DNA from: Halorussus marinus
GTDB taxonomy: Archaea > Halobacteriota > Halobacteria > Halobacteriales > Haladaptataceae
Reading direction: 5' to 3'
Assembly (NCBI RefSeq): GCF_004765795.1
Contig: NZ_SBIV01000011.1
Location: 1 to 64,000, forward strand
Length of the DNA stretch: 64,000 nt
Position 1 is the first letter of the stretch. Each line of letters begins with the position of its first letter. Shown here piece by piece: positions 27,165 through 60,746 of the stretch. A program made the translations under genes and the position numbers. The notes under the pieces were generated by a model. It was not told the origin of the DNA. It worked only from the letters and a program-made list of their open reading frames with translations, and did no database searches.

Positions 27165-27166
27165 CG

Positions 27167-31240: not shown

Positions 31241-31255
31241 CCTCGCTAATAGAAA

Positions 31256-31564: not shown

Positions 31565-31681
31565 AAGAGAAACTATTAAACATATCTTCTTAAGCAATTC
31601 GTCAAGTGGCCTTCCTAGAGCACCCCCCGTCGACAAGAAGCAACATCAATTACCCTTGCCCTCGTAAAGGAAGTTAGTATC

Positions 31682-32245: not shown

Positions 32246-32288
32246 CCCAGCACAAGCATTTTGTCGCACTTGGCCATCTGACAATGTA

Positions 32289-42817: not shown

Positions 42818-45292
42818 CTATATCGAGTCGGTGTAGCTAATGATCGATTCCAACTGTGGTGTTGGGTCGTTCGCCCCTTCCATTAGCCGAACGATTGGGT
42901 CGAACGTCCCTTTTCGTAGACCCTCGTACTCCCGCCTGTCTTCGACTCTCTGCTTTCCCCGAAGCGCGATACGTGCCATTTCGGCTAGTCCAGCAGGATT
43001 GTAGTGTTCAAAGATGGCGGGATTGTCGAACAGGTCCGTGTCGCGTTGCTGTGAGAGTTCTCGATACCAGAACCCGTAGAACAATAATTCGAGCCCGGTA
43101 TCGAGGTCTCCCGGTAAGGAGAGGTCACGGTCAACTCGGTCGCCAAATGCAGAAAGTTGGTCTTCTAAGGTGCGTTCAAATTCAGACATCCGTCGTGAAA
43201 TGTGTTCACCGTTAATTAGAAGCTCTCCAATGAGCGGATCAGCTACTGTGAGGGCTTCGTGGTAGTGTCGGAGGAACCCGAACCGCTCAACGAAGGCGTC
43301 ATCGTGCCATTCCATCAGGGATAGAAGGGTCGCCGGATGGACGGCGAATACGCCTGTCAGCTGGTCTCTATCGAGCACGTCAGCGGTCGTGTCTGGTTCG
43401 ATTCGACGGATTTGGTTGAGACGAATTCTACTGCGTACCAAGAATTGGGAGGCGATGATCGTCTGAATACGATTTACACAGATCGAGTGAAGCCTCTCGA
43501 CGTTCAACTCGGTTTCGTAGGGTTCGTCGCCCGCCTGAAGTTGTGGAGAGAGCGCAGACCGAATTAATCCTTTAATGACGTAGTACCAGAGGTTGTCGAA
43601 GTGATCGAGGAGTTCTTCGACTGAGCGGACAGTTGGTGGTTCTTCGAGAAGCGTTTCAATTCGCTTCTGTGCGTAGTCCATCCCGTCTTTGAGCTCCAAA
43701 TGCGGTTTTCGTCGCTTTGTTGTGATTCGAGTGCCGCCAGTTGCCCAGCTTCCTTCCTCGGCGTCTTGATCAGCTATAGGGGCATCTGGGTTGTCCTGTC
43801 GCTGCTGGTATCTTTCTGTGAGTTTAGACGTTGCTTGGGAGATGGCTGCGGTCGCAACTCCGACGTCAAAAAAGAGGGCTTCATCTACGAGCGACTGGAT
43901 CCCCGCCCGGCCGTCGCTCCGTAGCAATTCGGTTACTTCTCGGGTTCCCTCGGTCGGTTCCGTCGTGATTTGGCGGAAATTTGAGTGTCTCTCATCGGAG
44001 AGACGGAGGCGAACGATTGACTGGGCCCACGTTTCTGGAAGCGAGATAGTAACGCCTTCTTGCTCATCATCACTATCTCGTTGCCAGTTGATCTGAAGGG
44101 TCTCTCCCCCGTCTGATTCGAGAATGACAGCATCTCCGTCGTCGATTTCTGGTGCGACGAACCGTGCTGTAATCATCTCACTTTCGAAGCGTTCGACACG
44201 CGCATCGTGAAGAGTTAGCGTAGCTGTTGAATTCTCCCGGCTGGCCGGCGTGTATTCGGCAAAGTCGAACGAGTCAGGGTTGCGCTGCTGCCCCGGGTGT
44301 GCGGGAAAACTCGATTGATGCCATAGCGATGATTCACCGTGCGTTTCGTTGGTCACCGAGAGCAGGGCGGCTTCAAGATTCCCGGATGACGCTGTATCGA
44401 GGAGAGCACGACCGGTGATGTTTGGGCTTCCATAGAGCGTTGCTCTGCCCCAGGGGCCTTCGAGCAGTAGTCCTTTGGCGTGAATCCAGCGGGAAGTATC
44501 GTGTTCAAGGGGTCGAAACGTGACGCTTTCACCAAACGCTGCGACTGCATCGCTAGGGCTGAGGTGCGTATTCCCATCAGAGACGAGCAGTTCGTATTGA
44601 TTGGCTTCAATTATCGTCTCGATGTTGGATAGTGTCTTTTCACTTCCAAAGAATGGCGCAAAGAATACTGCGGTAGTGATGTCACCTAACTCATCAATGA
44701 CCTGCTGGAGAATCGGTTCTTCGAGGTTGTGGAAGAAGCCACCGGAAACCTCAGTCGGTCGGTCGAGATCTTCCAGCCACTCGGTCGTATTCACTGCCCG
44801 GTCGATTTGCGTCCGAACGTCGTGTCCTGAGACGTGATCGGCGGCAAGATGTTGTATAAACCGGCGCACATCTTTTGTTACGTGAATCGCTTCTGGGGGA
44901 CGTGAATCTTCGTCGTCGTCCAATTCCTTTGAAACCGTTATCGTTCGTCCCAGTTGTGCTGCCGTCGAATATTCTCCAAGGGTAAGATTGGCCGAGGAGA
45001 CTCCGACGTGACATGCCTCCTCTCCGGCGAGGAAATTGACTTTTGGATGGAATGTGCCGCTGACGCTGATTGGCTCTAGGTAGTAGTGGTTGCCGATTGC
45101 GCGACTCGACAGCTGATTGCGACGGGCTAACTGTTCGTATTTCTGCCCGTCCATGAGGACGACCGGTGTGACGACGCCCGCGTCTTGCAGCGGGTCAATT
45201 GCGTAGTTCCCGAAGAAAAGCGGCTCAAATGGGAACGTGGTGCAGACTGCGTATTCTACGTCTGCACCACCAAGGGCATCGATAAGATTCAC
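42818..45292 (-). CDS. Phospholipase D-family nuclease-like protein (two HxK motifs)
   Basis: TFHPKV..SSANLT and WIHAKG..GSPNIT..NLEA. Confidence 0.8.
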   Translation of the reverse strand: MNLIDALGGADVEYAVCTTFPFEPLFFGNYAIDPLQDAGVVTPVVLMDGQKYEQLARRNQLSSRAIGNHYYLEPISVSGTFHPKVNFLAGEEACHVGVSSANLTLGEYSTAAQLGRTITVSKELDDDEDSRPPEAIHVTKDVRRFIQHLAADHVSGHDVRTQIDRAVNTTEWLEDLDRPTEVSGGFFHNLEEPILQQVIDELGDITTAVFFAPFFGSEKTLSNIETIIEANQYELLVSDGNTHLSPSDAVAAFGESVTFRPLEHDTSRWIHAKGLLLEGPWGRATLYGSPNITGRALLDTASSGNLEAALLSVTNETHGESSLWHQSSFPAHPGQQRNPDSFDFAEYTPASRENSTATLTLHDARVERFESEMITARFVAPEIDDGDAVILESDGGETLQINWQRDSDDEQEGVTISLPETWAQSIVRLRLSDERHSNFRQITTEPTEGTREVTELLRSDGRAGIQSLVDEALFFDVGVATAAISQATSKLTERYQQRQDNPDAPIADQDAEEGSWATGGTRITTKRRKPHLELKDGMDYAQKRIETLLEEPPTVRSVEELLDHFDNLWYYVIKGLIRSALSPQLQAGDEPYETELNVERLHSICVNRIQTIIASQFLVRSRIRLNQIRRIEPDTTADVLDRDQLTGVFAVHPATLLSLMEWHDDAFVERFGFLRHYHEALTVADPLIGELLINGEHISRRMSEFERTLEDQLSAFGDRVDRDLSLPGDLDTGLELLFYGFWYRELSQQRDTDLFDNPAIFEHYNPAGLAEMARIALRGKQRVEDRREYEGLRKGTFDPIVRLMEGANDPTPQLESIISYTDSI

Positions 45293-47193
45293 TCGTATTC
45301 ACCTCGGAACCGGTCGAGGATGATCTCACCATCCTGCGTCGGTACCCAGAGGTCTCGGTCCTCATTGTACGTCAACAACCCCGCATCCCGCATGAGCCGA
45401 CGGAGGTCATTGTAACGGAGGGCTTGGGTTCCGGGTTGTTTCGTCCCTCCTGCGGCGTAGAGTGTGTCATCACTGTACTCCGTTGCTTCCCCACCAGAAT
45501 CTGCCCCGACACCGAACACAAGCGAAATCGGTCCGCTTCCAAGCCGATCATGGATCACTTGGTTGTGAACGTCGATAACCCGATCCGCCAACACCTCGCG
45601 TGCAACAGTGATGAGTGGCGTGTCTGGAGGAATGCTACCCACGTACTGAGCGGTACGGACGATTGAAGAGGGTCTACGCCCGTATTGGGCCTGCATATAT
45701 CGATTGAAGAGGTCATTATGAGCGGTCAAGTGGTTGTACTGTCTGACGACCGCGAGAAGTTGAACCAAACTCCGAGCGACGAGGGTGCTCATTGCGTCAA
45801 ATGCCTCGGATGGCGAGGAGGCAGCTTCAATTCCCGTAAAACTGTGCTCAGTCGCGTGTAGCAGCGTCCAACAATTTACGGTATTGTCTGTCGTTGGTCG
45901 CCATTCGCCAGCGAGATTTGAGTCCAACCACTCTTGAATCTCTCCGAGCGTCGTGCCGATTATTGTGGTTGTCTCCGGAACAGTGGTCTCGTAGGTAGTG
46001 GGTTTCACGCGGCCTGCAAGAAGCAATTCCTTCGTAACTCCGGACTGACTCATGCGTCCATCATCAAGTATGGTTTCGGTCTGAAGAACTGCGTTTGCCT
46101 CATCGACGAGTAAAGGTTCTTTCAGCCCAGAAAGTAGCTCCGAGCGGGACGTGCCGCCAGGAGCTTCGCGTTCTAGGTGAGCAGACAGACCCCATAGCTG
46201 AGATCGGAGTGCGTGGGCCAGCAGTACTTGAAGGAAGTAGGCGCGTCCGATTGGACGAAACGGTTGAAATCGCTCAGCGTCAACGTCGTCATATTGGAGC
46301 ACCTCTTGGTCGGTGTTACCTTGCAGTAACTGGTGAGCCCTCAAAATCGATAGGCACCAAGCACGTCGAAAGTAGTGAACCCCGCCGACGACAGCATCCT
46401 TCAAATCGTTTGAATGCCGTTCTTCAGAAATGAGGTAGCGATAGTGATCTCCGATGGGGATGTCGAGTTGAGAAGGCCACTCGGCGAGTGATACAGTCTG
46501 TTCTCGTTCTTCCCAATCGAGGACTCCGAGAACTACGCGCTGTAGAGAATCCCGTTCAGACGGGTTGTCTGAGCCAGTAAAGCATCCCTGGTGACTAAAG
46601 GCATCTGCCAGTTCGTCAAGTAAATCAAGCGAGACTTCCCCGGTCTGAATTGCTTCAAGTATCTGGTCGAAATATTCGCCCGCGACGACATCCAAACTCT
46701 CTGCGAGTGACCGTCCAGCAGCCGTGAGAGCGAACTCCCCCTCTTTTAACGAGAAGTTCCCGAGATTGGACTGGAATCCACGAATTGCGTACTGGCTTTT
46801 GTCCAACAGCGAGAAAGACGATAGGTCAATGCTCTCCACTTCGTACAGATTGTCGTCTGAGGCGTTCGTTTTCCCCGTTAATCCCGAGAGACCATCTCGG
46901 ACTTCACCATTGACTTGCTGACGCCGATAGCTTGCGAGCGCGAGGATTTCTTCGAACCCCTTCAGAAGCCGTCGCTTTTCTGATCTGGGAAGTTCACCAG
47001 TTGTTGACGCAGTCGAAATTCGATGCATTGCCCAGCAAAATCCCGAAAGATACCGTCCTCGTGCGCGGACATCTGTAGTTATTCCTCGTGCAATTGTGCT
47101 TGCGATCCCATTACGGACGCTATCAGCCCGGAGTGGCTGTTCTGGTGGCCCCGTTTTAGATAATCGCTCGCTCCATTGCGGGTCGAGCGCCAT
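45289..47193 (-). CDS. Hypothetical protein (DUF6361-like N-terminus), coupled to the PLD gene
   Basis: QPLRAD..IARGITTDVRARGRYLSGFCW; GTGA overlap with the PLD gene. Confidence 0.55.
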   Translation of the reverse strand: MALDPQWSERLSKTGPPEQPLRADSVRNGIASTIARGITTDVRARGRYLSGFCWAMHRISTASTTGELPRSEKRRLLKGFEEILALASYRRQQVNGEVRDGLSGLTGKTNASDDNLYEVESIDLSSFSLLDKSQYAIRGFQSNLGNFSLKEGEFALTAAGRSLAESLDVVAGEYFDQILEAIQTGEVSLDLLDELADAFSHQGCFTGSDNPSERDSLQRVVLGVLDWEEREQTVSLAEWPSQLDIPIGDHYRYLISEERHSNDLKDAVVGGVHYFRRAWCLSILRAHQLLQGNTDQEVLQYDDVDAERFQPFRPIGRAYFLQVLLAHALRSQLWGLSAHLEREAPGGTSRSELLSGLKEPLLVDEANAVLQTETILDDGRMSQSGVTKELLLAGRVKPTTYETTVPETTTIIGTTLGEIQEWLDSNLAGEWRPTTDNTVNCWTLLHATEHSFTGIEAASSPSEAFDAMSTLVARSLVQLLAVVRQYNHLTAHNDLFNRYMQAQYGRRPSSIVRTAQYVGSIPPDTPLITVAREVLADRVIDVHNQVIHDRLGSGPISLVFGVGADSGGEATEYSDDTLYAAGGTKQPGTQALRYNDLRRLMRDAGLLTYNEDRDLWVPTQDGEIILDRFRGEYE

Positions 47194-47527: not shown

Positions 47528-49204
47528 TCAGCAGATCAGTAAGAACAACCAGAACGGCAGATAGCAGATGCTGATCTCGTCCTTCTCGATGACTAAGGAT
47601 TCGTCCTCTCTAACTTCCTTCGGCAGGCTGTCGGTGATGATGAACCGGTACGGTGCCTGGTAATCCAAGTCTCGGAGATCTTCACTATCGGATTCGGTGT
47701 GTTGGCCAGAGCCGGGGTCGAAGTCTTCGGCGATTGTTTCGGCGTTACCGGTGTGTGGGTGGTAGGAGAGGATGAAGGGGAGGACGTCCCCGTTGCGGTG
47801 GAGGATGTAGTCAATAAGGCCGGATTCGGTTTCTGTGTATTCGACGTCGTATGCTCCGACGGTGTATGCGAGGCGTTTGGCGTGGTCGAAGGCGACGGTG
47901 CGGGCGAGTTTGTACTCGAATTCATGGTTGAGCGTGTCTTGCTGTTCGTAGCCTTCGAAGCCGTGGTGTTCCTGCCGCTGTGAGAGGAGGACGAGGTGAC
48001 GTGGGTTGCGGAGATACAGGCGGGTGCGGCGGTAGCGTCGCAGGGAGTAGTCTTGTGATTCGGTGACGGCGATGCCTTCATCGAGTACGTCGAGGTAGTT
48101 GTCGACGGTTCGCCTGTCGACGCCGATTTGATCGCTGAGGTCAGTGTACTGGAGTTCTTCACCGGCGTTGGTGGCGGCGATGGAGCTGAGGCGGTGGAGG
48201 TTTTCGGGTTGTTGGATGGACCGGTACTTGGCGAGTTCTTTGTAGAGGAAGAGGAGGAAGTGAGATTTGGAGAGTTCGTTCCGGATCGATGGGTTGTCTG
48301 TCTGATGGAGAGTGCCGCCTGTGCGGAGGTATGCGCGCGCGGCGTCGTGAAGGTTGTCGCGGTCGTCCGCACCGAAAATGTCGAAGCAGAGTTCTGAGAG
48401 TGCCTCAACGGCCGTGTCGAGCCTGGTTTCAGAATCTCTTCTGGACAGCCCGGTTCGAATCGTCTTGATCGGCGATGGCCCGTCTAAGTCTGATGATTGG
48501 TATTGTTCGAGTCGGGTTCGGAATTCGTCATCGAAATCGACGCCGAGGCCTGCGCCGATTTGAACCGTGTCGATGAATTTCATCGGGAGGATCGGCCACA
48601 GTTCGAATTCCTCGACGGTGTCGGCGGATTCGGTAGTGGAGAGATCGACTTGGGATTCGACGATGCCGGTCAGGAATACGTACGTGTTCTCGTCAACGAG
48701 ATCGAGTAGCTCCGCTTTTTGATCCTCGTTGAGGTCAAGGGCTTGGACATCGTCGAGGAGGATGAATTTTTGTCCTTGCCGGGGTGCGACGTGGGTCTGG
48801 AAGTAGTCGATGACCTGGTTGAGGCGTTTGATGTCGTCGCCTGCGCGTTCGAGCTGGTAGAGGGAGTCTTCTAGGGGGATGTAGAGGATTTGCCGCGGTT
48901 CGATTGCAGAGGTGAGTTCGAGGTCTGTGTTTTGGTGTGGGAAGTTGGTCGTGTTGAGGAGCGCTGCGACGAGTTGGTGGAGAAGGGTGGTTTTGCCGAT
49001 GCCGGTCTGGCCGTGAATCGCGTAGACGAGACTCTCGACGCCGTCAGTGTAGTGGGCATTCGTCGTTTTGAGAACGCGGTGGAAATCAGATCGTGGGATG
49101 AGGTCTGTGGCTTCCGATAGTTCTGGAGAGGTGCCGTCACTCCACCACTGGTTGTGGTGTTCGGCGTCGTCGATGAACTCTTCTGCGCTCCCTGTCCCGA
49201 GCAT
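47528..49204 (-). CDS. AAA+ ATPase (AAA_14/DUF4143-like)
   Basis: GQTGIGKTT, ILLDDVQ; HTH GVDRRTVDNYLDVL. Confidence 0.8.
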   Translation of the reverse strand: MLGTGSAEEFIDDAEHHNQWWSDGTSPELSEATDLIPRSDFHRVLKTTNAHYTDGVESLVYAIHGQTGIGKTTLLHQLVAALLNTTNFPHQNTDLELTSAIEPRQILYIPLEDSLYQLERAGDDIKRLNQVIDYFQTHVAPRQGQKFILLDDVQALDLNEDQKAELLDLVDENTYVFLTGIVESQVDLSTTESADTVEEFELWPILPMKFIDTVQIGAGLGVDFDDEFRTRLEQYQSSDLDGPSPIKTIRTGLSRRDSETRLDTAVEALSELCFDIFGADDRDNLHDAARAYLRTGGTLHQTDNPSIRNELSKSHFLLFLYKELAKYRSIQQPENLHRLSSIAATNAGEELQYTDLSDQIGVDRRTVDNYLDVLDEGIAVTESQDYSLRRYRRTRLYLRNPRHLVLLSQRQEHHGFEGYEQQDTLNHEFEYKLARTVAFDHAKRLAYTVGAYDVEYTETESGLIDYILHRNGDVLPFILSYHPHTGNAETIAEDFDPGSGQHTESDSEDLRDLDYQAPYRFIITDSLPKEVREDESLVIEKDEISICYLPFWLFLLIC

Positions 49205-49463
49205 ACAGTCGATTATTATAGGCTAGTACAAATATTCACGCATCTCGATGTCGCTATTCAGATTCTACTGTAGCTCTGCTGGCTATCTGGCCCAGTGTGG
49301 CAGTCTTTCGGTCCTCGGCGTCGTTCGACACTCCCTCAGAAGTGCCTCATCGGCGCGTCCCGAGGCGCTTTCTTTGAGTGTATTACCGCTAAAGTTGAGT
49401 TACCGTGTCTGAAGTTCGCCTAGTGGAAACCTATTTATTCTGGGCGTCCGTTGGTGGGCGTAG

Positions 49464-52142
49464 ATGGCAGTCAAGGCTGATATCGAGGATGGGAAAGAGA
49501 TCGACATCGCGCTGCGCGTCACAGGGATTGACGAGTGGGAGCACGATGCCATCGCTCGGAAGGTCCAGTTCGAGGACGTCGACGGCGCGGCGGTAGATCT
49601 GACAGTGTTCCACAACAACGATGTCGCGGACTTCGAGTGGCAGATCGGGGAGTGGTATCTCCTGGAGAACGTCGTCGGGAACGAGTTCCAGGGGGAGATG
49701 CAACTCAACCCAGGGTATGACCTCACTGTCACGCTGTTAGACGACCCTCCAGCCGCTGCCGAGAACGACGAGTTAGCCGAAGGTGATCCCGCGGAAGACT
49801 CTGTCGAGCAGTCCAAAGGGAGTGGGACTGCCGCGACAACATCGGATGCGTCCGATACTGAGGAGTTCGTTCGCGGAAGCGAGGTCGATGGTAATTCGCG
49901 GCCGACGGCTGATGGAGGCGGCGAGCTCCTGCATCAACAGCCGCTCTCAGACGGGAACTACCTGCTGCAGTTCGAGCTCGGAAAGTTGCCGGAGCTAACG
50001 GTCCACGAGTACGAACTCCGAGCGAGCGGGAGTGGCGGGATCGACCCTGACGATTTCACGAACGGGATTGAGGGGTTCTCGGCGAAGGCGGCGAACTACT
50101 ACCAGTCGCGGATCGGGAGTCCCGTGACGACGGCCGATGCGTCGCAGCGGCGTATCTACGCGACCGAGAAACTCAACAGCCCGATCTCGATTCACGGGTA
50201 TACGGTGAAGCCGGTCCATCAGGGCGAGACGACACTGGAAGCGCGCTCGTACACGGACGATGGGCCGCTACAGGAGTTCGTCAAGCAGGACGTGAAACGA
50301 GCCGTTACCGGGCGGTTCGAGGTGTCGGGGATCGATTCGATCATCGAGCCCACGCCGCAGCGGACCGCGAACAGCGGGCTGTTCGAAGCCTATCGGAAGT
50401 ACAAGTGCCGGATTCGTGTCGATGCTGACGGGACCGTGATTTGCGGCGTGAACGTCGCGTACCACTTGGAATCGACGTTCTCAGCCGCCGAGTGGGTGCA
50501 ACGCGGACAGGACATCGCCGATGTGACCGTTGAGCACGACACGGACCTGTACGACAGTGCACGCACGGCGACAGTCCAGGAGATCATCGACATGGACTAT
50601 GATGATGTGCTGGACGGGCCGGGCGTCCCGATGTCGGAGTACCACGAGAAACACGTCGATCAGGACGTCATCGATTCGATGCGAGCCGGCGACCCGGTCA
50701 TCGCTGATCTGCAGTACGGAAGCGGCGAGGACTCGATCTTCCCGCAGCTCTTGGAGTACTGTAAGGTCATCCCGACGTTCGACCAGTTGGGTCGCGTCGA
50801 TGACGCGTTCCTGGACGTCATCCACAACGAGAGCCGGATGAAACCCGAGGAACGTTTCAACGTCGTCACGTCGTTCGTCGACTTGCTCGGTCCGACACCG
50901 TACTTCAACTTCGACCCAAGCCCCCAACCCACGAACGCCGGGTATCGAGAACACAAGACGCCGGACATCCCGAACCTGCGGTTCGGTGGCGGACAAACGG
51001 GGTACTACGGGGCTGGCGGGCTGGAACGGAAGGGCTACGGCGTGTACAAGGCTCCAGAGTCATTCGACATCATCGCGCTGTATCCCGAAGACGAGGAGGA
51101 TGACGCGCGGCCGTACGTGCTCTCGCTGCTCAACAAGCTCGCAGAGTACAATGCGAGTCCAACAGCGTTCGACCGCGACACCTACGAACTCGGTTCGGAG
51201 TTCCACTACTCCCAGCCCGCGCAGAAAGCGAGTGACTACGATGCGGCACTGATCGTCGTTCCGGACGAAGACGAGGCTGCAGAAGCGGACTACGACGACC
51301 CGTATCCCGAGTTCAAGCGACGGCTCGGCCAACTCGGCGTGCCGAGTCAGATGATCTCCGTCGACAATCTCGGCAACGACAACTACCGCGGGAACATCTG
51401 CTCGTCCCTCATCGGGAAAGCGGGCGGGGTGCCGTGGCGGATCGACGACGTTCCTGGGGGCGTTGACGCGTTCGTCGGCCTCGACGTGACCTACGATCAC
51501 GCGACCAAGCAACACCTCGGCGCAGCCGCGAACGTCATCATGGCCGACGGAACCATCCTCGCGTCCGAGGCCGTCACGAAGCAGGCTGGCGAGACGTTCG
51601 ACGAGGACGACGTAGCGAACGTCATCAAGCACGTCCTGGAAATCTTCGCCGAAGAGGAAGGCCGACCACCGCGGCACGTGGTCATCCACCGTGACGGGAA
51701 GTTCTACCTCGACGTCGAGAGCCTCATCAACCGCCTCGACAAAGCCCGGGATCTCATCCAGCGGTTCGACCTCGTCGAGATTCGGAAATCCGGGAATCCC
51801 CGTATCGCCGAGTACGACGAGTCGAAATCCCGGTTCGATATCGCGGACAAGGGCGTCGCTTTCCACGTCCACAACGGCGACCACTCCTACCTGACCACGA
51901 CCGGTGGGAAGGAGGGCAGCCCTGGTACGCCACGACCGCTGCAGATCGTGAAACGCCACGGGTCGACAGACCTCGACACGCTCGCGGAGCAAACCTACTG
52001 GCTGTCTGAAGCGCACGTCGGGTCGCTGAGCCGCTCCACCCGGCTTCCCATCACCACGTACTACGCCGACAAGTGCGCCGACTTCGCCATGAAGGGCTAC
52101 CTCACCAAGGGGAGCGTCATCCGCGGCGTCCCGTACATCTGA
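49464..52142 (+). CDS. ago: Long prokaryotic Argonaute with an N-terminal OB-fold (NgAgo-like) and putative intact DEDD tetrad
   Basis: MID motif YPEFKRRL..VPSQMI..KAGGVPW; PIWI motifs GLDV, GETF, HRDG and RLPITTYYADK; OB-like N-terminus. Confidence 0.93.
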   Translation: MAVKADIEDGKEIDIALRVTGIDEWEHDAIARKVQFEDVDGAAVDLTVFHNNDVADFEWQIGEWYLLENVVGNEFQGEMQLNPGYDLTVTLLDDPPAAAENDELAEGDPAEDSVEQSKGSGTAATTSDASDTEEFVRGSEVDGNSRPTADGGGELLHQQPLSDGNYLLQFELGKLPELTVHEYELRASGSGGIDPDDFTNGIEGFSAKAANYYQSRIGSPVTTADASQRRIYATEKLNSPISIHGYTVKPVHQGETTLEARSYTDDGPLQEFVKQDVKRAVTGRFEVSGIDSIIEPTPQRTANSGLFEAYRKYKCRIRVDADGTVICGVNVAYHLESTFSAAEWVQRGQDIADVTVEHDTDLYDSARTATVQEIIDMDYDDVLDGPGVPMSEYHEKHVDQDVIDSMRAGDPVIADLQYGSGEDSIFPQLLEYCKVIPTFDQLGRVDDAFLDVIHNESRMKPEERFNVVTSFVDLLGPTPYFNFDPSPQPTNAGYREHKTPDIPNLRFGGGQTGYYGAGGLERKGYGVYKAPESFDIIALYPEDEEDDARPYVLSLLNKLAEYNASPTAFDRDTYELGSEFHYSQPAQKASDYDAALIVVPDEDEAAEADYDDPYPEFKRRLGQLGVPSQMISVDNLGNDNYRGNICSSLIGKAGGVPWRIDDVPGGVDAFVGLDVTYDHATKQHLGAAANVIMADGTILASEAVTKQAGETFDEDDVANVIKHVLEIFAEEEGRPPRHVVIHRDGKFYLDVESLINRLDKARDLIQRFDLVEIRKSGNPRIAEYDESKSRFDIADKGVAFHVHNGDHSYLTTTGGKEGSPGTPRPLQIVKRHGSTDLDTLAEQTYWLSEAHVGSLSRSTRLPITTYYADKCADFAMKGYLTKGSVIRGVPYI

Positions 52143-52205
52143 CCATGCGCCAGTACAGAACCACCCAACCACTCACGCATCCGTCGACACACCGGTAACC
52201 CTCGC

Positions 52206-54326
52206 ATGCCCAAGACTGAATTTGAAGCAACGGTCGAGTTCGATGACGGCAGCACCGCCGATCTGGAGATGGCTGCCGACAAATCATGGGACAGTTTCCT
52301 GAACTACTTCGGTGACGCCCAGCACGTTTACTGCGTCACGTACAGTCAGTCCCCCGCGTTCATCTACAAGATGTTTCAGAACCAGGACCTTGCAGTGGAT
52401 TCACTGGAGGTCATCGTCGGGGACAACCAGCACGACGACTACCGGCGGTCGCTGAAAAACACGAACAACGCGAAGAAAATCGCCGCGCAACTGGAATCTC
52501 TGCGCCAAGACGGTGATCTCCTCATTCACACCGTCGATTCCGCGCGCGTCCTCCTCCACACGAAGCTCTACATCGTCGAGAACCAGGACGGGTCTCGCAC
52601 ACTCATCTGTGGGTCGGCGAACCTCTCCAAGCAGGCCTGGCAGGGGAGCAAACAGACCAACGTCAACATGGCCTGGCGTACCGACGGAGATACGCCCGTC
52701 GACGAGTGGTTCGAACGGCTCTACGCGTTCCACAAGGACTACGCGACGCCGTTCATGGAAGACCTCACAGAGGAGATCGAGGACGCCGACACGGCAGAAG
52801 AAGAGGCGAAGATCTACGACATCTGGCTAGGCGGCGACGAGTTCAGTGACGACCCGGTCGCCGAGCTGAACGCCCGGCTCGATGAAGCAGTTGACGACGA
52901 CCAAGTCAATACGTACAACGTCGTCACTGACGCCGAAGACGCAGAGAAGGCGGTGTTCGCCGCTGAAGATACGGATACCGACCCGACAGAGATCAGTCCG
53001 GACAAGCGTGTGCGGCTCTCCCCGCAAGGTCTCGAAGACGCCATCTCGAATCTGGACGACACGCTGTCGGCCAATAACATCCGTATCAACGACGGGGAAA
53101 TCGTAGCGACACCAGCCGGGATCGCACGGTACAAAGAGACCTTCACGGGATACCCGGACCTCAACGTCGACAAGGAGGCAAACACGGTCGGGCTCCGGGT
53201 TGACGACTCCGTCCTCGAATTAACGGCACCGCTCCCGGATGACCCGCAGGAAGTCGCTGACGCGCTCGACCTGATCGAACAGTACGTCGAAACGGTCGGC
53301 GAGTTCGGCGAAACGCGAACGACGAAGGAGACGCGCGCGCACTTCTACGAAGGGGTAATCTACTTCTGCTGGGCTCCGTTCGCCAACTACTGCGCCCACC
53401 ACTACGCCGAATACGAATCCGCGGAACTGGACAAGGACCTGCCGTTCCTGTTCCTTCACGGCGACAACGACAGCGGGAAAGGCATGTTCCTACGGTTCGG
53501 GGCGCGACTCATCTCGAACGGGTACGTACAGGAGGTCACGACCGGCGACGACTTTGTCAAAAACAACATCGAGCGTGCTCGTGCATCGGACACTGTTTTC
53601 CCGTACATCGTTGACGACGTGGCGAAGTCGAAGATCGACCGAGACATCATCAAGTCGTACTGGGAGGGGAAGTGGGACGGCTCTATCCAGATGCCGACGT
53701 TCATCTTCTCCTCGAACGACTCGACGAAACCCAAATCCGAACTCCGGACCCGCATGAAGACGCTGGACTTCAACGTCAACTTCTCCGAACTGGAGAAGGA
53801 CGAACGGGAAGCCGCCGCGCAGATCGCGGGGGAAGCGGACAGCTGTAACCTGTTCCCGTGGTTCGCCCACCTGTTCCTGCAACGGGATATCTCGCTGCCA
53901 GACCAGGCAGACCGGCTCGCGGATGCTCGGGATGTGTTCGCGGAGCTGTACGCGTATGCCGAAAAGGAACCACCAGAGTATGTGCCACTGGAGAAACCCG
54001 CCGAGCAAGAACACGACCCGGGGCGTCGAAAATGGATCAGCGCGCTGTCCGACGGGCTGTGTGAGCTCGACTTCAAGGACGACGGGCGTGTCATCGCTGA
54101 TTTCTCAGCGAATCTGGATCAGCAGCAGTGCTGGGAGTTCCAGAAAGCCACGCCAGCCCATATCCGGGCAGGGATTTACGGGCCGGCGGTTCAGTTTGAA
54201 AGCGCAAACAGGTTCAAGAACTGGATAGATGAGCCCAGTATCATCGAAGATGCACGACGCGACACGGAGACGGCCGCTGACGACACCGGTGTTCTGTCTC
54301 GGGTCACACGGCTCGTCCGAGGATAA
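52206..54326 (+). CDS. PLD-family nuclease fused to a P-loop ATPase
   Basis: LHTKLY..GSANLS; HGDNDSGKG (Walker A), YIVDD (Walker B). Confidence 0.8.
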   Translation: MPKTEFEATVEFDDGSTADLEMAADKSWDSFLNYFGDAQHVYCVTYSQSPAFIYKMFQNQDLAVDSLEVIVGDNQHDDYRRSLKNTNNAKKIAAQLESLRQDGDLLIHTVDSARVLLHTKLYIVENQDGSRTLICGSANLSKQAWQGSKQTNVNMAWRTDGDTPVDEWFERLYAFHKDYATPFMEDLTEEIEDADTAEEEAKIYDIWLGGDEFSDDPVAELNARLDEAVDDDQVNTYNVVTDAEDAEKAVFAAEDTDTDPTEISPDKRVRLSPQGLEDAISNLDDTLSANNIRINDGEIVATPAGIARYKETFTGYPDLNVDKEANTVGLRVDDSVLELTAPLPDDPQEVADALDLIEQYVETVGEFGETRTTKETRAHFYEGVIYFCWAPFANYCAHHYAEYESAELDKDLPFLFLHGDNDSGKGMFLRFGARLISNGYVQEVTTGDDFVKNNIERARASDTVFPYIVDDVAKSKIDRDIIKSYWEGKWDGSIQMPTFIFSSNDSTKPKSELRTRMKTLDFNVNFSELEKDEREAAAQIAGEADSCNLFPWFAHLFLQRDISLPDQADRLADARDVFAELYAYAEKEPPEYVPLEKPAEQEHDPGRRKWISALSDGLCELDFKDDGRVIADFSANLDQQQCWEFQKATPAHIRAGIYGPAVQFESANRFKNWIDEPSIIEDARRDTETAADDTGVLSRVTRLVRG

Positions 54327-54331
54327 CAGTC

Positions 54332-56392
54332 ATGTCTGACCACTCACCTCACCGGCGATTCGACGGGACATTAGTCACGGCACCGTTCGGGGGCGAAAAC
54401 GTCGAACGGACAGCGCGGGACGAATACCGAGCGCTCCTCGACGAGCACGATTCTGAGGATGTGCTCGTCGTCACGGGTGCGCCGACGAGTACCGACACGT
54501 TCCGCGAGACGTTAGGTGAGGAACTGTCGGGTGCGGCGACGCCGTACGTGACCTCGCTCGTCGTGCACGCGACCGATGTCCTCAACCAGACTGATGACCG
54601 CGTCATTCTCTCCGACGCGCTGCGGCGAGAACTCCTCCACCGATTCCTCGAAGAGTACGAGTGGGACACGGAGTACCTCCAGCAGGCGTCTGAACAGCCG
54701 TCATTCATCGAGGACGTGGACGCCGTGATGAGCACGATCTCCTGGCAGACAGTCACGCCTGACGAAACCCCGGAACTCCGTGACATCACGGCTGCGCTCG
54801 ATGCATTCCACGAGTGGCTGGCCGAGCACGGCCACATGGAACGCGGGCAACTCATTTCGGAAGCGCTCGATGTCCTCACCGGGGATGCCCGCGGCGATGT
54901 CGTCGATTTCGAGGCGGTACTCGCGTTCGAGTTTGAGGAATTCTTCCCGCTCGACCGCGCGTATCTCGACGCGCTCGCAGGAGACTGTGACCTCGTCTGT
55001 ATCGCCGAAGAGAACGCGAGTGTACGCCGCACATGGGTCGAAACAGGACCCGTTACGGACTACGTCTCCTTCAGCGAATCTCGTCGCGGAGCCTCGGAGA
55101 CGTCGTCGACGCGACCGGCTGCCACAGCATCGTACTTCGCCGACGAGACGGCTCCGGCAGACCCGGAAACAGGGTCGGTGTCCGTCCTCGCTACGGACTC
55201 CAGTGACGAGCAACTCGCCGAGGTTGCCAACGAGATCGAATCCCTCGTCGGGCGGTCGGGCTGGAACTACGACGATATCGCGGTCGCCACGAAACAAAGC
55301 GGGAGTGCGGTTACGGACACTATCGAAGCGTTCGAACAAACCGGCATCCCGGCGGAATCGACGACTGTCACTGGATTCGGCGACGACCCCGCGATTCGGG
55401 AACTCCTCGCTGCCGTCCGGTATCTTGCTGCCGACGACGAGGATGAAGTGCCCGACCGCGCCCCGGAGATCGATACAGAGCGCTTAGACCGTGTCCACGA
55501 GATGGACAGCCTCGAAGATGGGCTTCGCTGGTGGGCGACTGACTCGGGATTGAAAGAGCGAATTGCGGAACGCGCGACCCCGCTGGACGCGCGGGCGCAG
55601 TTCGGGAACGTCAAGCGGGCGTTTCGGATGGCCGAGCTCCTCGAAGACACTGCGTTCGTGGATGCCACGTGGGAGTCCGTCGAGGAGATGCTCGAACGCG
55701 CCCACGAGTACGCACCGCAACAAAACCAGACGAGTGCGACGGATCTCAACGGCGGCGTCCGCGTCGATCACTTGCAAGCCATCAAGAACGAATCGTTCCG
55801 CGCGGTGTTTCTCGTGAATCTCGTCGACAGTGAGTACCCGGGTGACCCGTTCCTGACGCGGTTGTTCCCGACCGAGCGGGTCGCGGCGATGCCGGACTAC
55901 CCTGGCGTCACGGAGCTCGACGAACCGGACGTAGATGCGACGTTCCCGACGACGTCGACGGCGTCGAGCCGGCCGTTCGCCCGGTACCACACGGAACACG
56001 CGCGGCGACGCTTAGCGATTGGGGCTGATGCTGCCGACGAGCACCTGTACTGTTGTCTGTACGAATTCGAAGACACTGCGCTGGAAGAGCGTGCGCAGGC
56101 GTCGCGGTTCCTCACAGAGGCGTACGACCGCCTCCCGTGGGTCACCGACGCCGACGACCCACACATCACGAGCGAGCAAGCGGCAGAGGACTTCCTGTTG
56201 TCGCGGGTTGACGACGCGCTCGCCCAAGTGCGGCGCGCAAACAGTCAGGACCTGACGGTGTCGCTTGACGAGCTAGAAGCGGAGCTCGGCGAGATCCAGG
56301 ACCTGCTTGATCAGAGCGGAGCGCGTGGCGAGGACCTCCGGAAGGCATTGCGTGCGCGCGTCGAGTTCGCTAACGGGGAGGTGCGGCGATGA
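54332..56392 (+). CDS. Inactive UvrD-like helicase (AddB/AdnA-like motor part)
   Basis: Degenerate motifs VLAFEFEEF, DIAVAT and KNESFRAVFLVNL; no Walker A. Confidence 0.65.
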   Translation: MSDHSPHRRFDGTLVTAPFGGENVERTARDEYRALLDEHDSEDVLVVTGAPTSTDTFRETLGEELSGAATPYVTSLVVHATDVLNQTDDRVILSDALRRELLHRFLEEYEWDTEYLQQASEQPSFIEDVDAVMSTISWQTVTPDETPELRDITAALDAFHEWLAEHGHMERGQLISEALDVLTGDARGDVVDFEAVLAFEFEEFFPLDRAYLDALAGDCDLVCIAEENASVRRTWVETGPVTDYVSFSESRRGASETSSTRPAATASYFADETAPADPETGSVSVLATDSSDEQLAEVANEIESLVGRSGWNYDDIAVATKQSGSAVTDTIEAFEQTGIPAESTTVTGFGDDPAIRELLAAVRYLAADDEDEVPDRAPEIDTERLDRVHEMDSLEDGLRWWATDSGLKERIAERATPLDARAQFGNVKRAFRMAELLEDTAFVDATWESVEEMLERAHEYAPQQNQTSATDLNGGVRVDHLQAIKNESFRAVFLVNLVDSEYPGDPFLTRLFPTERVAAMPDYPGVTELDEPDVDATFPTTSTASSRPFARYHTEHARRRLAIGADAADEHLYCCLYEFEDTALEERAQASRFLTEAYDRLPWVTDADDPHITSEQAAEDFLLSRVDDALAQVRRANSQDLTVSLDELEAELGEIQDLLDQSGARGEDLRKALRARVEFANGEVRR

Positions 56393-57294
56393 GCCAGGAG
56401 TCGCTCTCACCGTCGGCGTTAGCCACGTACGCGACGTGTCCACGACTGTACGACTACAGAGAAGTTCAAGACGTGAACGCCCCGGACCGAACCGAACTCT
56501 ACCTCAACCAGGGGACGATCTACCACGAGACAATCGAGGACGTGTGTGAGGCGACCGACCGCGACGACCCACCAGAGGTGATTCACGACCGGGCCATGCG
56601 GATTTTCGATGCGAAGTGGGACGAACACAGTAGCGCCGACGACTATGAATCACGCGCACACCGGGAGTACCAGCGTGCTGAGAACCGGGCTGCTATCGAG
56701 TCGTTCTTCGCGCCCGATGGCGGCGTCGGTATCAGCCACGCCCGTCGCTCAATCGCCACCGAGTGCTGGGTAGAGTGCGAAGTAGATGGGCGAGGACTCC
56801 ACGGGAAAGCAGACAACGTCATCCGGACGGACGACGGCCTGCACATCTTCGACTACAAGCGGAAAACCCACGGGATGCTCTCCGACGGGACAGCTGAGTA
56901 TCTCGGCGAGCATCTCGACGGGGAGGCCCACGAGCCGAAGCGTGTGCGGAATGCGTTCCAGACGGCAGCGTACATCGAGGGCGTGAAGAACGAACCGTTC
57001 TACGAGGACGGGATGGAGGTCCAGTTCAGTTTCTACGGTCTCCTCAACAGCACGTCGTTCGAGAGTACCCCTACCGGGTACGATGTGTCTGCACGCGGGT
57101 GGGGTCGGGAAACGACTGAGATTTACGACGACCACTATGACACAATCTGGGCGCTCATACGGGATACACACGACGGCATCACGGGCGAGACCTTCGAGCC
57201 AGAGCCGTTCGAGCTCATCAACGAGGAGGCGTGCCCGGACTGTGACTATCGAGAGATGTGTGCTGACCGCTTGTCGACGGAGGTACGCCGATGA
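56389..57294 (+). CDS. PD-(D/E)xK Cas4/AddB-like nuclease with Fe-S cysteines
   Basis: LSPSAL..CPR, HGKAD..FDYK and CPDCDYREMC motifs. Confidence 0.85.
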   Translation: MSQESLSPSALATYATCPRLYDYREVQDVNAPDRTELYLNQGTIYHETIEDVCEATDRDDPPEVIHDRAMRIFDAKWDEHSSADDYESRAHREYQRAENRAAIESFFAPDGGVGISHARRSIATECWVECEVDGRGLHGKADNVIRTDDGLHIFDYKRKTHGMLSDGTAEYLGEHLDGEAHEPKRVRNAFQTAAYIEGVKNEPFYEDGMEVQFSFYGLLNSTSFESTPTGYDVSARGWGRETTEIYDDHYDTIWALIRDTHDGITGETFEPEPFELINEEACPDCDYREMCADRLSTEVRR

Positions 57295-60200
57295 GCGACG
57301 ACAGTGACGAGCACCCGTCGTGGTTCCCTGTCCCGGAAGAGGACGTCTCCCCGGAGCCCCAGCAGCGGACGATTATCAACTCCGACGCGTACCCGATGCG
57401 TGTGCTCGCCGGGGCAGGGACGGGGAAGACGTTCACGATGGTGCGGAAGATCGAGCACCTCATCGACGAGGAGGACGTGTCGCCGGACCGGATTCTCGCG
57501 TTGACGTTCACGAACAACGCCGCGGACTCGATGCGTGAAAAACTCAACGCGAAACTCGGCGCGGCCGGGTACGACATCGACGCGTACACGTACCACTCCA
57601 TCTGTAACGAGATCCTCACCGACTACGCGTACGAAGCTGGGATCGATCCGGATTTCGAGGTCGCCACGGACGCCGAGAAGTACGCCATCGTGCTGGACGT
57701 CCTGGACGACATCGAATACCGGTCTGTGAAACCAAACGTGTACGGGAGCGACGGGTACGCGTCAGGGGCCGCGTCGAAGCTGCTCAACTTCATCGGGTCG
57801 ATGAAGCGCAGCGGCATCACGCCCGACGACATCGACGCGTTCCTCGGCCCTGCTGACCGCGTCTACGAACTCGCCGACCTCTCGGAGCGCGTCGAAAACA
57901 TCGCCAGCGATCATCTGGGCGGCCGGTCCGTGTCAAGCGTGCTGGATTCGCTTCCAGACGCGCGTGCTGACCTTGTCGCTGAGCGCGACGCACTCGGGAC
58001 CCAGGGTATCGAAGCCAGCGTCCGCGACTTCCTCGACCGCATCATCGAGCTTTGCGACGAGTTGGAAGCAGCGTTCGAAGCCCACGAGGCGGGCGACCAA
58101 GCGTTGCCGGACAACGCGTACAAGCTCCCGAAGTATCTGCTTGGAGGGTACGCGAACGGTGCGCCGAAGGGGATTCCGGACGATCTTGACCTCGAACTCA
58201 CGGAGCATCTCGACTCGTTCCTCTCGGACTGTCTCACGGCCCGTGACCTGACAGCGGGCTATGCGGCGTATGAGCGTGAACTCGACGAGCGGAACCTCAT
58301 CGACTTCGACGGCCTCGTCGTGGAGACGGCCGCACTGATGGACTCGCCGGTCGGCGAGGAAATCGCTGACCGGTGGGACTACGTATTCTGTGACGAGTTC
58401 CAGGACACCGACCGGCTGCAGTTCGATCTCGTCACGTCGCTGGTCACCGACGACAACCTGTTCGTCGTCGGTGACGACGATCAGGCGATCTACGAGTGGC
58501 GTGGCGCGAACGTCGCCAACATCACCGACGAACTCGACCGCGCGTTCGCCGCACTTGAAGATGAACCGTTAGAAGAGAACTTCCGGTCCCGACAGCCGAT
58601 CCTCAACCTGGCGAACGAAGCAATTCAGAAGCTCGACCACCGCGAACGACACAAGACACTGAAACGCGTCAACGAACCCGCCTACGACGGCGACACCGTC
58701 GCAACCGTCGAACTGCCGGACGAGGACGATGCGGACGGCGCGACCCAGCTTCGCACCGTCGTCCAGAATCTGCTGAGCGGCGCAGCAGACAACCTCGAGG
58801 AGGCGTACAACCCGGGCGACATCGCGTTACTCGTTCGGAAGAACGACCACGCGACGCCGGTCATCGAGGAGTTCGAGGATGCCGGCATCCCGTACCAAGT
58901 TGCTGGTGATCTGGCTACGGAATCAGTCGGCGTCGGCACCGTGACTGCCTACCTGAAGGCGCTCGCGCGGCCCGAAGACGAGGTGAGTTGGAATCGCGTC
59001 CTCCTGATGCGGTACCGGCTCTGCGATGCGGACCTCCGGACGCTCAACGCGGGCGACGACCCGCTCGTGGACACACTGTGCGGGACGCCGCTCGACGAGT
59101 TCGAGGAACCCGACCGCGTCGCAGAAGCCCGCGAGCACGCCACGGAACTACTCGAACTCCGCGACTCAGCGTCGCTCAGTCACCTGTACCGCGAACTTAC
59201 GGACATCACGAACATCGAGTGGTACCTCAGCGAACAGGAACGCCGGGATCTCGCCCAACTGGAGGATGTCATCGAACAGTACGGGGATAGTGCCGTCCAA
59301 CCACCGCTCACCCCGGAGTTCATCGACTCGCTCGAACACTACGACTCCCTGTTCGACGAGAGCGGCTCGACACCGACGAGTCAGCCGGACGTCGCCGACG
59401 ACGCGGTCAACGTGATGACCATCCACAAGAGCAAGGGCCTGGACTTCCCGGTCGTCCTCATCCCGCAAGTCACGGCCGACGAGTGGGCACCGAGCTCACG
59501 TACCTACGACGCACTCGAAACGGGGCTCTCGGATGGCGCGGAGGCGGCGTTCGCCGAGGACTTCGTCGAGCGTGACGGGCGTGAAACCCGGCGCGTGTTC
59601 CACGTCGGAATCACGCGCGCCGAAGACGTCCTCGTCCTCCAGGGCGGCATCGAGGACGACGACGATGCTGCGGACGTGCACCCGGTTTCAGAGGCCGTCG
59701 ACGAGATTCTCCCAGCCCGAATCCCGTGGCAGCCAGCGCGCGGGCAGCTCCCGCTCTGGACCGACGTTCAGGAGTGTCTCCCGGATGATGCGGCAGATTG
59801 GACAGACACGCTGGCAAGCGAGACTGTCGGGCGCGTTGGAGGGACCGTCACTCACGACGGCGACGAACTCGCAGTCGAAGCTGCGCGCGACCGCGTGCTA
59901 GACCTCGCAACAGCCACCCTCAACGGAGATCTCTCACCGGGGGCCGAGCGAGAGACACTCCAAGTGACGTCGCTGAACGGCCCGTCGACACCGTCACCAT
60001 CGCTCTCGCACAGCTACACGTCGCTGGCAGCCTACGAGGAATGCCCGCGGAGCCACTACCTAGACTACGTGGTCAACGCATTCCCCGACTATCAGGATGC
60101 GACGAATGAAGCCCGGGATGGTGTTTCGCAACGTGAGATCGGGTTGCTGTTCCACGACACTGCAGAGCAAGCCGCGAACCAAGCTGTGGACCGGGGTGCG

Positions 60201-60746
60201 GAGTGGTACGAAATCTGTGAGCGCCTCGCCAGTCAACGCCGAGCCGAGGACGCGCTCCCGGCGGCGAAACAGTGTATCGACCGGTACTTCGAATTAGACT
60301 TCCCCAGCTACGAGCTGATCGATGCGGAGCGAGAGTTCGAACTCGACATCGATGGGCACGAACTCGTCGGATACATCGACGCCGTCTACCGGACGCCAGA
60401 CGATGAGTTGCTCGTCATCGACTACAAGGCCACCGAACGTCACCGCGACCTGGAGGACGACAAGCAACTCCCGATCTACCTGTTGGCATGTCGTGACCTG
60501 TACGATGAGTCCGTCGCACGTGCGGGGTACGCCTATGTCGGTGAGATAGGGCCGACGGTCGAGTCCCGAACATTCAGCGACGGTGACCTGGCGGCGGTCA
60601 GGGACGACGTGACGGCGTCGATGACCCGTATTGCCGAGTTCTCCTTCGGTCGGTACACTGCTGGTGACCACTGTCAGTGGTGTCAACACAACCAACTGGC
60701 CTGCGCGCCGGATTCGTTCACGGTCGGACCAGGATTCGAGGAGTGA
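57291..60746 (+). CDS. UvrD/AddA/AdnB-like helicase with a C-terminal PD-(D/E)xK nuclease
   Basis: AGAGTGKT, DEFQD, VGDDDQAIYEWRGA, TIHKSKGLDF and GITRA motifs; GYIDA..IDYK..QL.IY and CQWC. Confidence 0.92.
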   Translation: MSDDSDEHPSWFPVPEEDVSPEPQQRTIINSDAYPMRVLAGAGTGKTFTMVRKIEHLIDEEDVSPDRILALTFTNNAADSMREKLNAKLGAAGYDIDAYTYHSICNEILTDYAYEAGIDPDFEVATDAEKYAIVLDVLDDIEYRSVKPNVYGSDGYASGAASKLLNFIGSMKRSGITPDDIDAFLGPADRVYELADLSERVENIASDHLGGRSVSSVLDSLPDARADLVAERDALGTQGIEASVRDFLDRIIELCDELEAAFEAHEAGDQALPDNAYKLPKYLLGGYANGAPKGIPDDLDLELTEHLDSFLSDCLTARDLTAGYAAYERELDERNLIDFDGLVVETAALMDSPVGEEIADRWDYVFCDEFQDTDRLQFDLVTSLVTDDNLFVVGDDDQAIYEWRGANVANITDELDRAFAALEDEPLEENFRSRQPILNLANEAIQKLDHRERHKTLKRVNEPAYDGDTVATVELPDEDDADGATQLRTVVQNLLSGAADNLEEAYNPGDIALLVRKNDHATPVIEEFEDAGIPYQVAGDLATESVGVGTVTAYLKALARPEDEVSWNRVLLMRYRLCDADLRTLNAGDDPLVDTLCGTPLDEFEEPDRVAEAREHATELLELRDSASLSHLYRELTDITNIEWYLSEQERRDLAQLEDVIEQYGDSAVQPPLTPEFIDSLEHYDSLFDESGSTPTSQPDVADDAVNVMTIHKSKGLDFPVVLIPQVTADEWAPSSRTYDALETGLSDGAEAAFAEDFVERDGRETRRVFHVGITRAEDVLVLQGGIEDDDDAADVHPVSEAVDEILPARIPWQPARGQLPLWTDVQECLPDDAADWTDTLASETVGRVGGTVTHDGDELAVEAARDRVLDLATATLNGDLSPGAERETLQVTSLNGPSTPSPSLSHSYTSLAAYEECPRSHYLDYVVNAFPDYQDATNEARDGVSQREIGLLFHDTAEQAANQAVDRGAEWYEICERLASQRRAEDALPAAKQCIDRYFELDFPSYELIDAEREFELDIDGHELVGYIDAVYRTPDDELLVIDYKATERHRDLEDDKQLPIYLLACRDLYDESVARAGYAYVGEIGPTVESRTFSDGDLAAVRDDVTASMTRIAEFSFGRYTAGDHCQWCQHNQLACAPDSFTVGPGFEE

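Follow-up and report, generated by a model that had tools for sequence, protein, structure and literature searches.

A long-A Argonaute operon of Halorussus marinus with a predicted three-chain AddAB/AdnAB-like module

In the first 64,000 nucleotides of Halorussus marinus contig NZ_SBIV01000011.1 (positions 1-64,000, hereafter the window, whose coordinates are used throughout; the host genome is labelled G000), a gene for a long-A prokaryotic Argonaute (pAgo) leads a run of five co-oriented genes. Gaps of 63 and 5 nt and then two ATGA overlaps separate them, a layout that we re-derived identically from the open reading frame (ORF) coordinates, and the domain calls that a preliminary description had made for all five were borne out by Pfam and PADLOC matches, motif checks and fold comparison. 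Genes 1 and 2 are the published APAP pair, a long-A pAgo with the phospholipase D-type (PLD) nuclease AgaP, while ORF3 to ORF5 (the trio) look, by their sequences, like an AddAB/AdnAB-like module made as three chains with two predicted iron staples. The identical order and spacing recurs in 15 of 401 genomes, so the arrangement is not due to chance. Nevertheless, the five-gene operon is a conserved variant of APAP and not a fixed five-gene system. The features of the locus are as follows.

49464-52142, forward strand: ago, an 892-aa long-A pAgo with an N-terminal OB (repA-like) domain, intact DEDD and a 5'-phosphate pocket
52206-54326, forward strand: agaP (ORF2), 706 aa, with a PLD nuclease (HxK...GSxN) and, in the same chain, an MCM/SF3-like AAA+ domain (Pfam Aq_aa27-like)
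54332-56392, forward strand: ORF3, 686 aa, an inactive UvrD-fold subunit with an AddB/AdnA/RecC-like body and no nuclease
56389-57294, forward strand: ORF4, 301 aa, a stand-alone four-Cys (iron-staple-type) PD-(D/E)XK nuclease equivalent to the AddB/AdnA nuclease domain
57291-60746, forward strand: ORF5, 1151 aa, an active SF1A helicase with a four-Cys PD-(D/E)XK nuclease, the AdnB/AddA-like motor subunit
47528-49204, reverse strand: an AAA_14/DUF4143 ATPase gene, 558 aa, divergent from ago (Pfam AAA_14 and DUF4143; PADLOC candidate PDC-S01)
49425-49440, forward strand: a predicted promoter for a putative leaderless transcript, with TTTATT at 49434-49439, presumably TATA-like by the archaeal promoter consensus, and AAA upstream, 25-30 nt before the ago start
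56377-56392, forward strand: a GGAGGT Shine-Dalgarno sequence and ATGA overlap, predicted from sequence to couple translation of ORF3 and ORF4
57279-57294, forward strand: GGAGGT and ATGA overlap, likewise predicted to couple ORF4 and ORF5

Because GGAGGT precedes both ATGA overlaps, the three genes of the trio are probably translationally coupled throughout.

The Argonaute-AgaP pair

The Argonaute matches Pfam Piwi (E=3e-20) and the PADLOC pAgo model (1081 bits), and both its catalytic tetrad (D674/E710/D744/D869) and the 5'-phosphate pocket of its MID domain (Y614/K618/Q629/N644/K652) are intact. The preliminary description had assigned it an OB fold together with DEDD residues. The latter stand in full; the former is favored by a weak match of residues 7-94 to replication factor A (E=5e-4, below the cut-off). 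A repA domain has been described in haloarchaeal pAgos (PMC8464042).

Both the PLD motif of AgaP (H118-K120 and G136-S137-N139) and its ATPase residues (Walker A G419-x4-G424K425, Walker B D470D471, S503-N504 and R516) are conserved in 28 of 28 homologues. By Foldseek the N-terminus of the predicted model (pLDDT 82) matches Nuc-type PLDs, the PLD half being recognized and the ATPase half hardly so. With VIA-align, residues 303-610 matched ring helicases of the MCM type from staphylococcal islands (5dgk, Z 12.5, rmsd 4.6 Å, 241 residues aligned), with further matches to 8tch (Z 11.3) and to MCMs (Z ~10), and the sole result of a profile search against solved chains was NucT (E=0.13). On these predicted structures, we take AgaP to combine a PLD nuclease with a ring ATPase that resembles MCM. 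Only 15 residues lie between K120 and G136, short of the ~50-residue split between HxK and GSxN found elsewhere. The long acidic insert between the motifs is confined to one subgroup (L129, L026, L158 and L099), and the window AgaP is ~31% identical to this split-motif type. Given that the insert marks a subtype, the window AgaP belongs to a different one.

The ago and agaP genes of Natrinema pellirubrum are reported to be co-transcribed and, as a two-gene insert, to restrict a plasmid and a virus (Cheng et al. 2024, PMC11442185). According to that report, plasmid restriction requires AgaP catalysis and not Ago catalysis, restriction of a single-stranded DNA (ssDNA) virus requires Ago catalysis, and AgaP of the N. 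pellirubrum pair is toxic without Ago, which suppresses the toxicity. The window pair shares with it the order of ago and PLD gene at a short gap (31-64 bp there, 63 here), the intact DEDD, and the intact HxK and GSxN motifs, and differs in the short HxK-GSxN spacing, since AgaP of N. pellirubrum and its closest homologues have the ~50-residue split. Further differences are the trio, the AAA gene and the alternative resection modules described below, which were not found in the accessible part of that report; the terms ATPase, AddA, UvrD and Cas4 are absent from its main text. Its discussion does remark on a helicase-encoding gene near some ago-agaP operons. Given that ORF3 homologues (87-89% identical) are present in three of the species in its Fig. 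S1, the remark probably concerns operons with the trio.

The predicted helicase-nuclease trio

ORF3 has a UvrD fold (model pLDDT 86; Foldseek TM 0.64 to 4ceh_B) and has lost its P-loop, with TGAPTSTD in place of Walker A. In the profile search against solved chains its best match was Bacillus subtilis AddB (3u44_B, E=6e-10), and AdnA matched at 1.5e-4; its length is 653-714 aa in the best 120 of 251 homologues. The same search with ORF4 returned no match. In ORF4 the PD-(D/E)XK residues are E125/D142/D155/K157 and the four cysteines are invariant (82 of 82); the EDDK set is kept in 57 of 57 sequences of the closer groups, including 39 of 39 in clade A, and in 0 of 25 from genomes of family f6. 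ORF5 has the full SF1A motifs, a D1030/D1044/K1046 nuclease and four cysteines of its own, all conserved in 83 of 83; the preliminary description lacks these cysteines. In its motif III, W403-R404 matches the aromatic pawl W325-R326 known from AdnB (PMC13000450). Among solved helicase-nucleases, AdnB is the best match to ORF5 (E=2e-27), with AddA at 1e-16 and RecB at 7e-11, and its matches to the TIGR addA/recB models fall below the cut-off.

The earlier suggestion that the inactive subunit is split from its nuclease holds at the level of sequence, because in alignments to a full-length haloarchaeal AddB, ORF3 covers the N-terminal part (91% probability) and ORF4 the nuclease at the C-terminus (98%). 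The trio keeps its gene order, with the nuclease subunit as a separate ORF, at 32 of 32 trio loci and at 57 of 60 further loci (in the other 3 the middle gene was left uncalled by the ORF caller). Gene order and coupling suggest that the three chains assemble; a predicted-complex run of ORF3 with ORF4, made with alignments, scored 0.00 and was used neither for nor against assembly.

Like AddAB (B. subtilis, PDB 3U44/4CEH) and AdnAB (mycobacteria, PDB 6PPU), the trio combines one active SF1A motor bearing a nuclease with a motor-like partner encoded first, and has two PD-(D/E)XK nucleases and iron-staple cysteines; the aromatic pawl in motif III is shared with AdnAB. Unlike either, it has its partner split over two genes and without the Walker A that AddB and AdnA are reported to keep (PMC3321194). 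The four cysteines stand on both of its nucleases, whereas the available sources describe them for AddB/AdnA only, and the trio is archaeal, mobile and patchy.

Resection machines beside haloarchaeal Argonautes

We surveyed 401 Halobacteria genomes, of which 138 hold ORF3 homologues and 58 an Ago. In all 15 genomes with an Ago of the window's clade (at least 89% identical over the query), Ago lies directly upstream of the trio, and the gap between agaP and ORF3 is fixed at 5 nt. Thirteen of these Agos are full-length (one spans a contig break inside agaP) and 2 are broken. The linkage foreseen in the preliminary description is thus conserved from the side of the Ago. It is not conserved from the side of the trio, as set out in the next section.

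The divergent AAA_14/DUF4143 gene, which had been absent from the earlier operon description, is a more constant partner of this Ago superclade than either agaP or the trio: it accompanies every intact Ago of this clade (15 of 15 distinct loci) and stands at 10 of 10 sister-clade loci (L123-L132), compared to 0 of 28 other Ago loci.

For comparison we examined the surroundings of Ago, up to 20 kb of sequence, in the remaining 43 Ago genomes except four with trio loci (G150, G287, G034 and G330) and one fragment (G041), which leaves 38. A different end-resection machine, strictly defined, is present at 23 of the 38, and at 29 when MrfAB-type and single helicase-nuclease genes are included. At 18 there is a spare Mre11/Rad50 operon, in most cases together with HerA and NurA or a NurA-like gene (in some, one gene is lost at the locus or contig edge), and at 5 a two-gene AddAB. 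As a control we took every fourth of the 150 McrC-like matches listed, which gave 38 loci, or 35 once 3 that hold Ago were dropped; resection machines occur at 2 of these 35 (4 leniently). The profiles were built from the Ago-locus and trio families, and weak matches (<60 bits) added one Rad50-like match in the controls. The Fisher p of 4e-7 is overstated, because kin are not independent; grouped by hand on a quick Ago tree, 14 of 20 Ago lineages have a resection machine. The Ago-linked rad50 is an extra copy in 9 of 9 genomes tested, the housekeeping rad50 lying elsewhere. The contrast between 23 of 38 and 2 of 35 supports the earlier proposal that haloarchaeal pAgos bring their own end processing. 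A census of the Pfam NurA model, tried as a test of proximity, was uninformative (394 of 401 genomes match) and was replaced by this comparison of loci.

Unrelated machines fill the same position in the sister clades. The window reads AAA gene (divergent), ago, agaP, trio. At L127 and L128 the order is AAA gene, ago, agaP, mre11-rad50-nurA-herA; at L132 it is AAA gene, ago, mre11-rad50-nurA-herA; and at L123-L125 ago is followed by a gene for a 1517-aa four-Cys nuclease/SF1B helicase and then by mre11-rad50, again with the AAA gene divergent. This 1517-aa protein (L124:11036-15589; also L123 and L125), which stands between an active Ago and a spare Mre11-Rad50, appears Dna2-like by its motifs.

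Several further genes recur beside these Agos. At L133, L135, L137 and L141, OB-less DEDD Agos of 747 aa, which belong to another clade, adjoin a canonical two-gene addB-addA. At loci of the L138 type, rad50 and herA are separated by a 453-aa gene that matches nothing in Pfam, NCBIfam or PADLOC and reaches E=0.014 to the NurA group; its position alone suggests that it is NurA-like. A pair of an MrfA-type helicase (DEAD and MZB) and an RNase H/HhH exonuclease recurs at L130, L132, L139, L140 and L154-L157, and a DUF2797 gene of ~300 aa lies just upstream of ago at L143-L157, 15 loci of the deepest long-A clade.

Since unrelated machines occupy one slot, the simplest reading is that a product common to them, namely shredded and unwound end DNA, serves Ago, and the coupling of Ago and trio is likely to run through this DNA product and not through a fixed contact. 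The gene context suggests, with chances that we put as evenly balanced, that the trio is one of several exchangeable resection modules and provides the Argonaute with DNA guides and single strands. A broader version, to which we lean somewhat less than we lean against it, is that haloarchaeal long-A Agos form a modular immunity with a dedicated resection slot, in which a core of AAA ATPase and Ago, with or without AgaP, takes any of at least four unrelated machines to make guides: the split AdnAB-like trio, a two-gene AddAB, Mre11-Rad50-NurA-HerA, or a Dna2-like protein with Mre11-Rad50.

In the proposed mechanism, a mobile APAP defence operon is followed by an autonomous split AddAB/AdnAB-like trio that would load on broken or linear DNA ends. 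By homology, ORF5 would be the 3'-5' motor and ORF3 its passive partner, with ORF4 and the ORF5 C-terminus each cutting one strand, in three chains instead of two. The trio would unwind and shred ends into short DNA guides and single-stranded targets for Ago. AgaP, to judge from the APAP paper, would be held in check by Ago, with its nuclease needed against plasmids (PMC11442185); its ring-ATPase domain may let it travel on DNA, and the breaks it makes could be entry points for the trio. Fragments would then load into the 5'-phosphate pocket, Ago would cut unwound strands, and the new breaks would feed the loop, as modelled on CbAgo and RecBCD. The guides of CbAgo are reported to derive from RecBCD-processed ends (10.1101/2020.03.01.971358). 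That system likewise joins an active DNA-type long-A pAgo to a double-strand-break resection machine, RecBCD/AddAB, but there the machine is the host's and unlinked, whereas here it is part of the operon and has been swapped among lineages.

The preliminary description also held that archaea generally lack such end processing. This is too strong for the host, in which end processing is not wholly missing because G000 has its own housekeeping rad50 with an adjoining mre11-like gene. The Pfam NurA model has no match in G000, though it matches 394 of 401 relatives, and the only PDDEXK_1 matches in the genome are ORF4 and ORF5. A review describes Haloferax volcanii as without HerA-NurA (PMC7776575), yet the NurA model matches nearly all Halobacteria genomes, as counted above. 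Such hosts may lack long-range resection and not end processing as such.

Each of the five genes is single-copy in the host genome. Their contig (75 kb) has 58% G+C, compared to 67-69% in most large contigs, and their neighbours on it are restriction, helicase and nuclease genes; the region is a mobile defence region of the haloarchaeon. No tRNA was found within the 64-kb window. One run on the forward strand (24288-37595) comprises a SNF2 helicase (DrmD-like), an Eco57I-type methylase-nuclease and a 1768-aa DruE-like helicase, and includes a TATA-binding protein gene at 31682-32245. Two overlapping genes lie on the reverse strand at 42818-47193; the 634-aa product has no matches, and the 824-aa product has an N-terminal PLD-like motif and matches PADLOC ZacB (E=3e-10).

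Autonomy of the trio and competing readings

Several observations weigh against a trio that works for Ago. Among the 138 genomes with an ORF3 homologue, 123 have no adjacent Ago of this clade, and only 15 of 36 close homologues (at least 75% identical) are accompanied by it. The 38 distinct clade-A trio loci divide into 14 with an intact ago, 2 with a broken ago and 22 without, and 5 of the 22 keep 3' remnants of agaP just before ORF3. The dN/dS values with and without Ago are 0.13/0.13, 0.12/0.11 and 0.09/0.10 for the three trio genes; because this purifying selection is equal, no added constraint from Ago can be seen. In one trio clade AgaP is present but Ago is not, at 15 of the 38 other Ago loci the 20 kb examined hold no resection machine under the strict definition, and ago-agaP alone is reported to confer immunity in H. 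hispanica (PMC11442185). Finally, all functional evidence here is gene context.

The agaP remnants before ORF3 at L012, L017, L018, L064, L069 and L003 all span window positions 54166-54214, a retained segment that could be an internal promoter or merely mark deletion ends.

On a quick trio tree of 39 rows, with 8 distant rows left out, the Ago-bearing loci are scattered (9 changes), and their placement in one clade is rejected (p-AU 1e-46), which rules out a one-off recent junction of ago and trio. Given this scatter, the remnants and the equal dN/dS, we concluded that ago-agaP is repeatedly lost or exchanged from beside an autonomous trio that stays useful. The idea of a self-contained five-gene system is therefore not supported, since ago-agaP is reported to work already as the two-gene APAP (PMC11442185) and the trio does not depend on it.

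The settings of the trio are varied, and McrBC-like or other defence genes are frequent neighbours. In family f6, 83 of 98 genomes have a trio, which often adjoins housekeeping genes (proS, folC/P, uvrA) and has a decayed ORF4 active site. At L103-L122 (f6 and others) the trio is chromosomal, with a dead ORF4 nuclease whose four cysteines are kept; an f6-type trio is possibly a domesticated single-nuclease repair enzyme. In a second trio clade, the trio has the AAA gene on one side and a split-motif AgaP on the other; this AgaP is 86% identical to that of L130, where ago occupies the place that the trio holds in this clade. At L022, L023, L026, L027 (8040-19931) and L099 (6337-18228), the order is AAA gene (divergent), trio, a gene for a 375-aa OB-fold/exonuclease-like protein, and a convergent split-motif AgaP gene, with no ago; the Ago census of the 401 genomes found no Ago match in the genome of L099. 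The 375-aa protein shares the N-terminal OB domain of Ago and might stand in for it as AgaP inhibitor. Other Argonautes also occur near close trio homologues: a short pAgo with a REase-APAZ-type partner 2-3 genes away at L073 and L074, and another long-A Ago ~9 kb upstream at L071.

The alternative that survives best, though we consider it improbable, is that the resection module makes no guides and serves as an antidote, repairing by recombination the host or element DNA broken by Ago and AgaP. The reported toxicity of AgaP alone (PMC11442185) is consistent with such a need, as is the standing of AddAB, AdnAB and Mre11-Rad50-NurA-HerA as repair enzymes (PMC7776575, PMC13000450, PMC3321194). 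So too are the f6 trio among chromosomal housekeeping genes, with its decayed ORF4 active site, and the occurrence of AgaP without an intact Ago beside a trio at L065 and L079 as well as at the five loci of the second trio clade. However, hosts already have mre11-rad50, and the Ago-linked trio keeps both nucleases; nor was a recombinase gene recognized in the loci, although no search was aimed at recombinases.

The trio could also be an independent anti-invader or repair module that shares the islands with ago-agaP as a co-mobilized cassette, with no functional link. Its many contexts, the scatter of Ago on its tree and the equal selection with and without Ago would all follow. This reading, which we judge still less probable, leaves unexplained the unrelated machines in the same sister-clade slot and the excess of resection machines over the control loci, and not one of the 15 Agos of this clade stands without the trio.

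We give equally little credence to a trio that acts downstream of recognition, recruited to the target by guide-loaded Ago (or AgaP) to destroy it, in the manner of DdmDE of Vibrio cholerae, where DdmE is reported to load the DdmD helicase-nuclease on plasmid DNA (10.1101/2024.05.10.593530). APAP plasmid defence is reported to be independent of Ago catalysis (PMC11442185), AgaP breaks would offer the trio an end to load on, and the Ago-less second trio clade also fits, but if recruitment needed a specific protein contact, the replacement of the trio by three unrelated machines and its autonomy would be difficult to explain. In addition, DdmD is described as starting at an internal bubble and moving 5'-3', whereas AddAB/AdnAB load on DNA ends. 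Both systems encode a pAgo with a helicase-nuclease for plasmid destruction; as described, DdmDE is an obligate two-part system with one 5'-3' helicase-nuclease chain and a catalytically inactive DdmE (PMC13618286), whereas here an active Ago with an intact tetrad and a PLD-ATPase meet an optional three-chain SF1A machine, the ORF5 motor being of UvrD/PcrA type.

Guide supply by an exchangeable resection module remains the reading that we prefer. Another published system with a co-encoded nuclease is APACE1, a cyanobacterial long-A pAgo with the Cas4-family ACE1 (PMC12094033), which likewise has a four-Cys PD-(D/E)XK nuclease in hosts without RecBCD/AddAB. According to that paper, ACE1 has no helicase and trims ssDNA. 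ORF4, unlike ACE1, always lies between ORF3 and ORF5 whether or not Ago is present, which rules it out as an ACE-type Ago partner.

Surprise at the locus is tempered by earlier work: ago-agaP was published and its neighbouring helicase remarked on, and the pAgo neighbours reported in 2018 by Ryazansky et al. (10.1101/366930) already included PLD proteins and a UvrD plus PD-(D/E)XK orthogroup, though NurA, Rad50 and SbcC do not occur in the main text of that study. Among the papers listed by full-text searches, which do not cover subscription papers, none describes AddAB-like or Mre11-Rad50-NurA-HerA partners of a haloarchaeal Ago.

What deserves testing here is the swappable resection slot. 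PMC12094033 calls it unclear how, in hosts that lack RecBCD/AddAB, long-A pAgos come by their guides and gain access to double-stranded DNA, and these loci make the question testable in genetically tractable haloarchaea. The trio would provide an archaeal three-chain, two-iron-staple relative of AddAB, and AgaP as a predicted fusion of PLD nuclease and MCM-like ring ATPase would bear on how APAP clears plasmids. A natural pairing of Ago and helicase could be useful for targeting double-stranded DNA with pAgo tools. If true, the modular slot would answer where pAgo guides come from without RecBCD/AddAB, and would be a DNA counterpart of the Dicer step.

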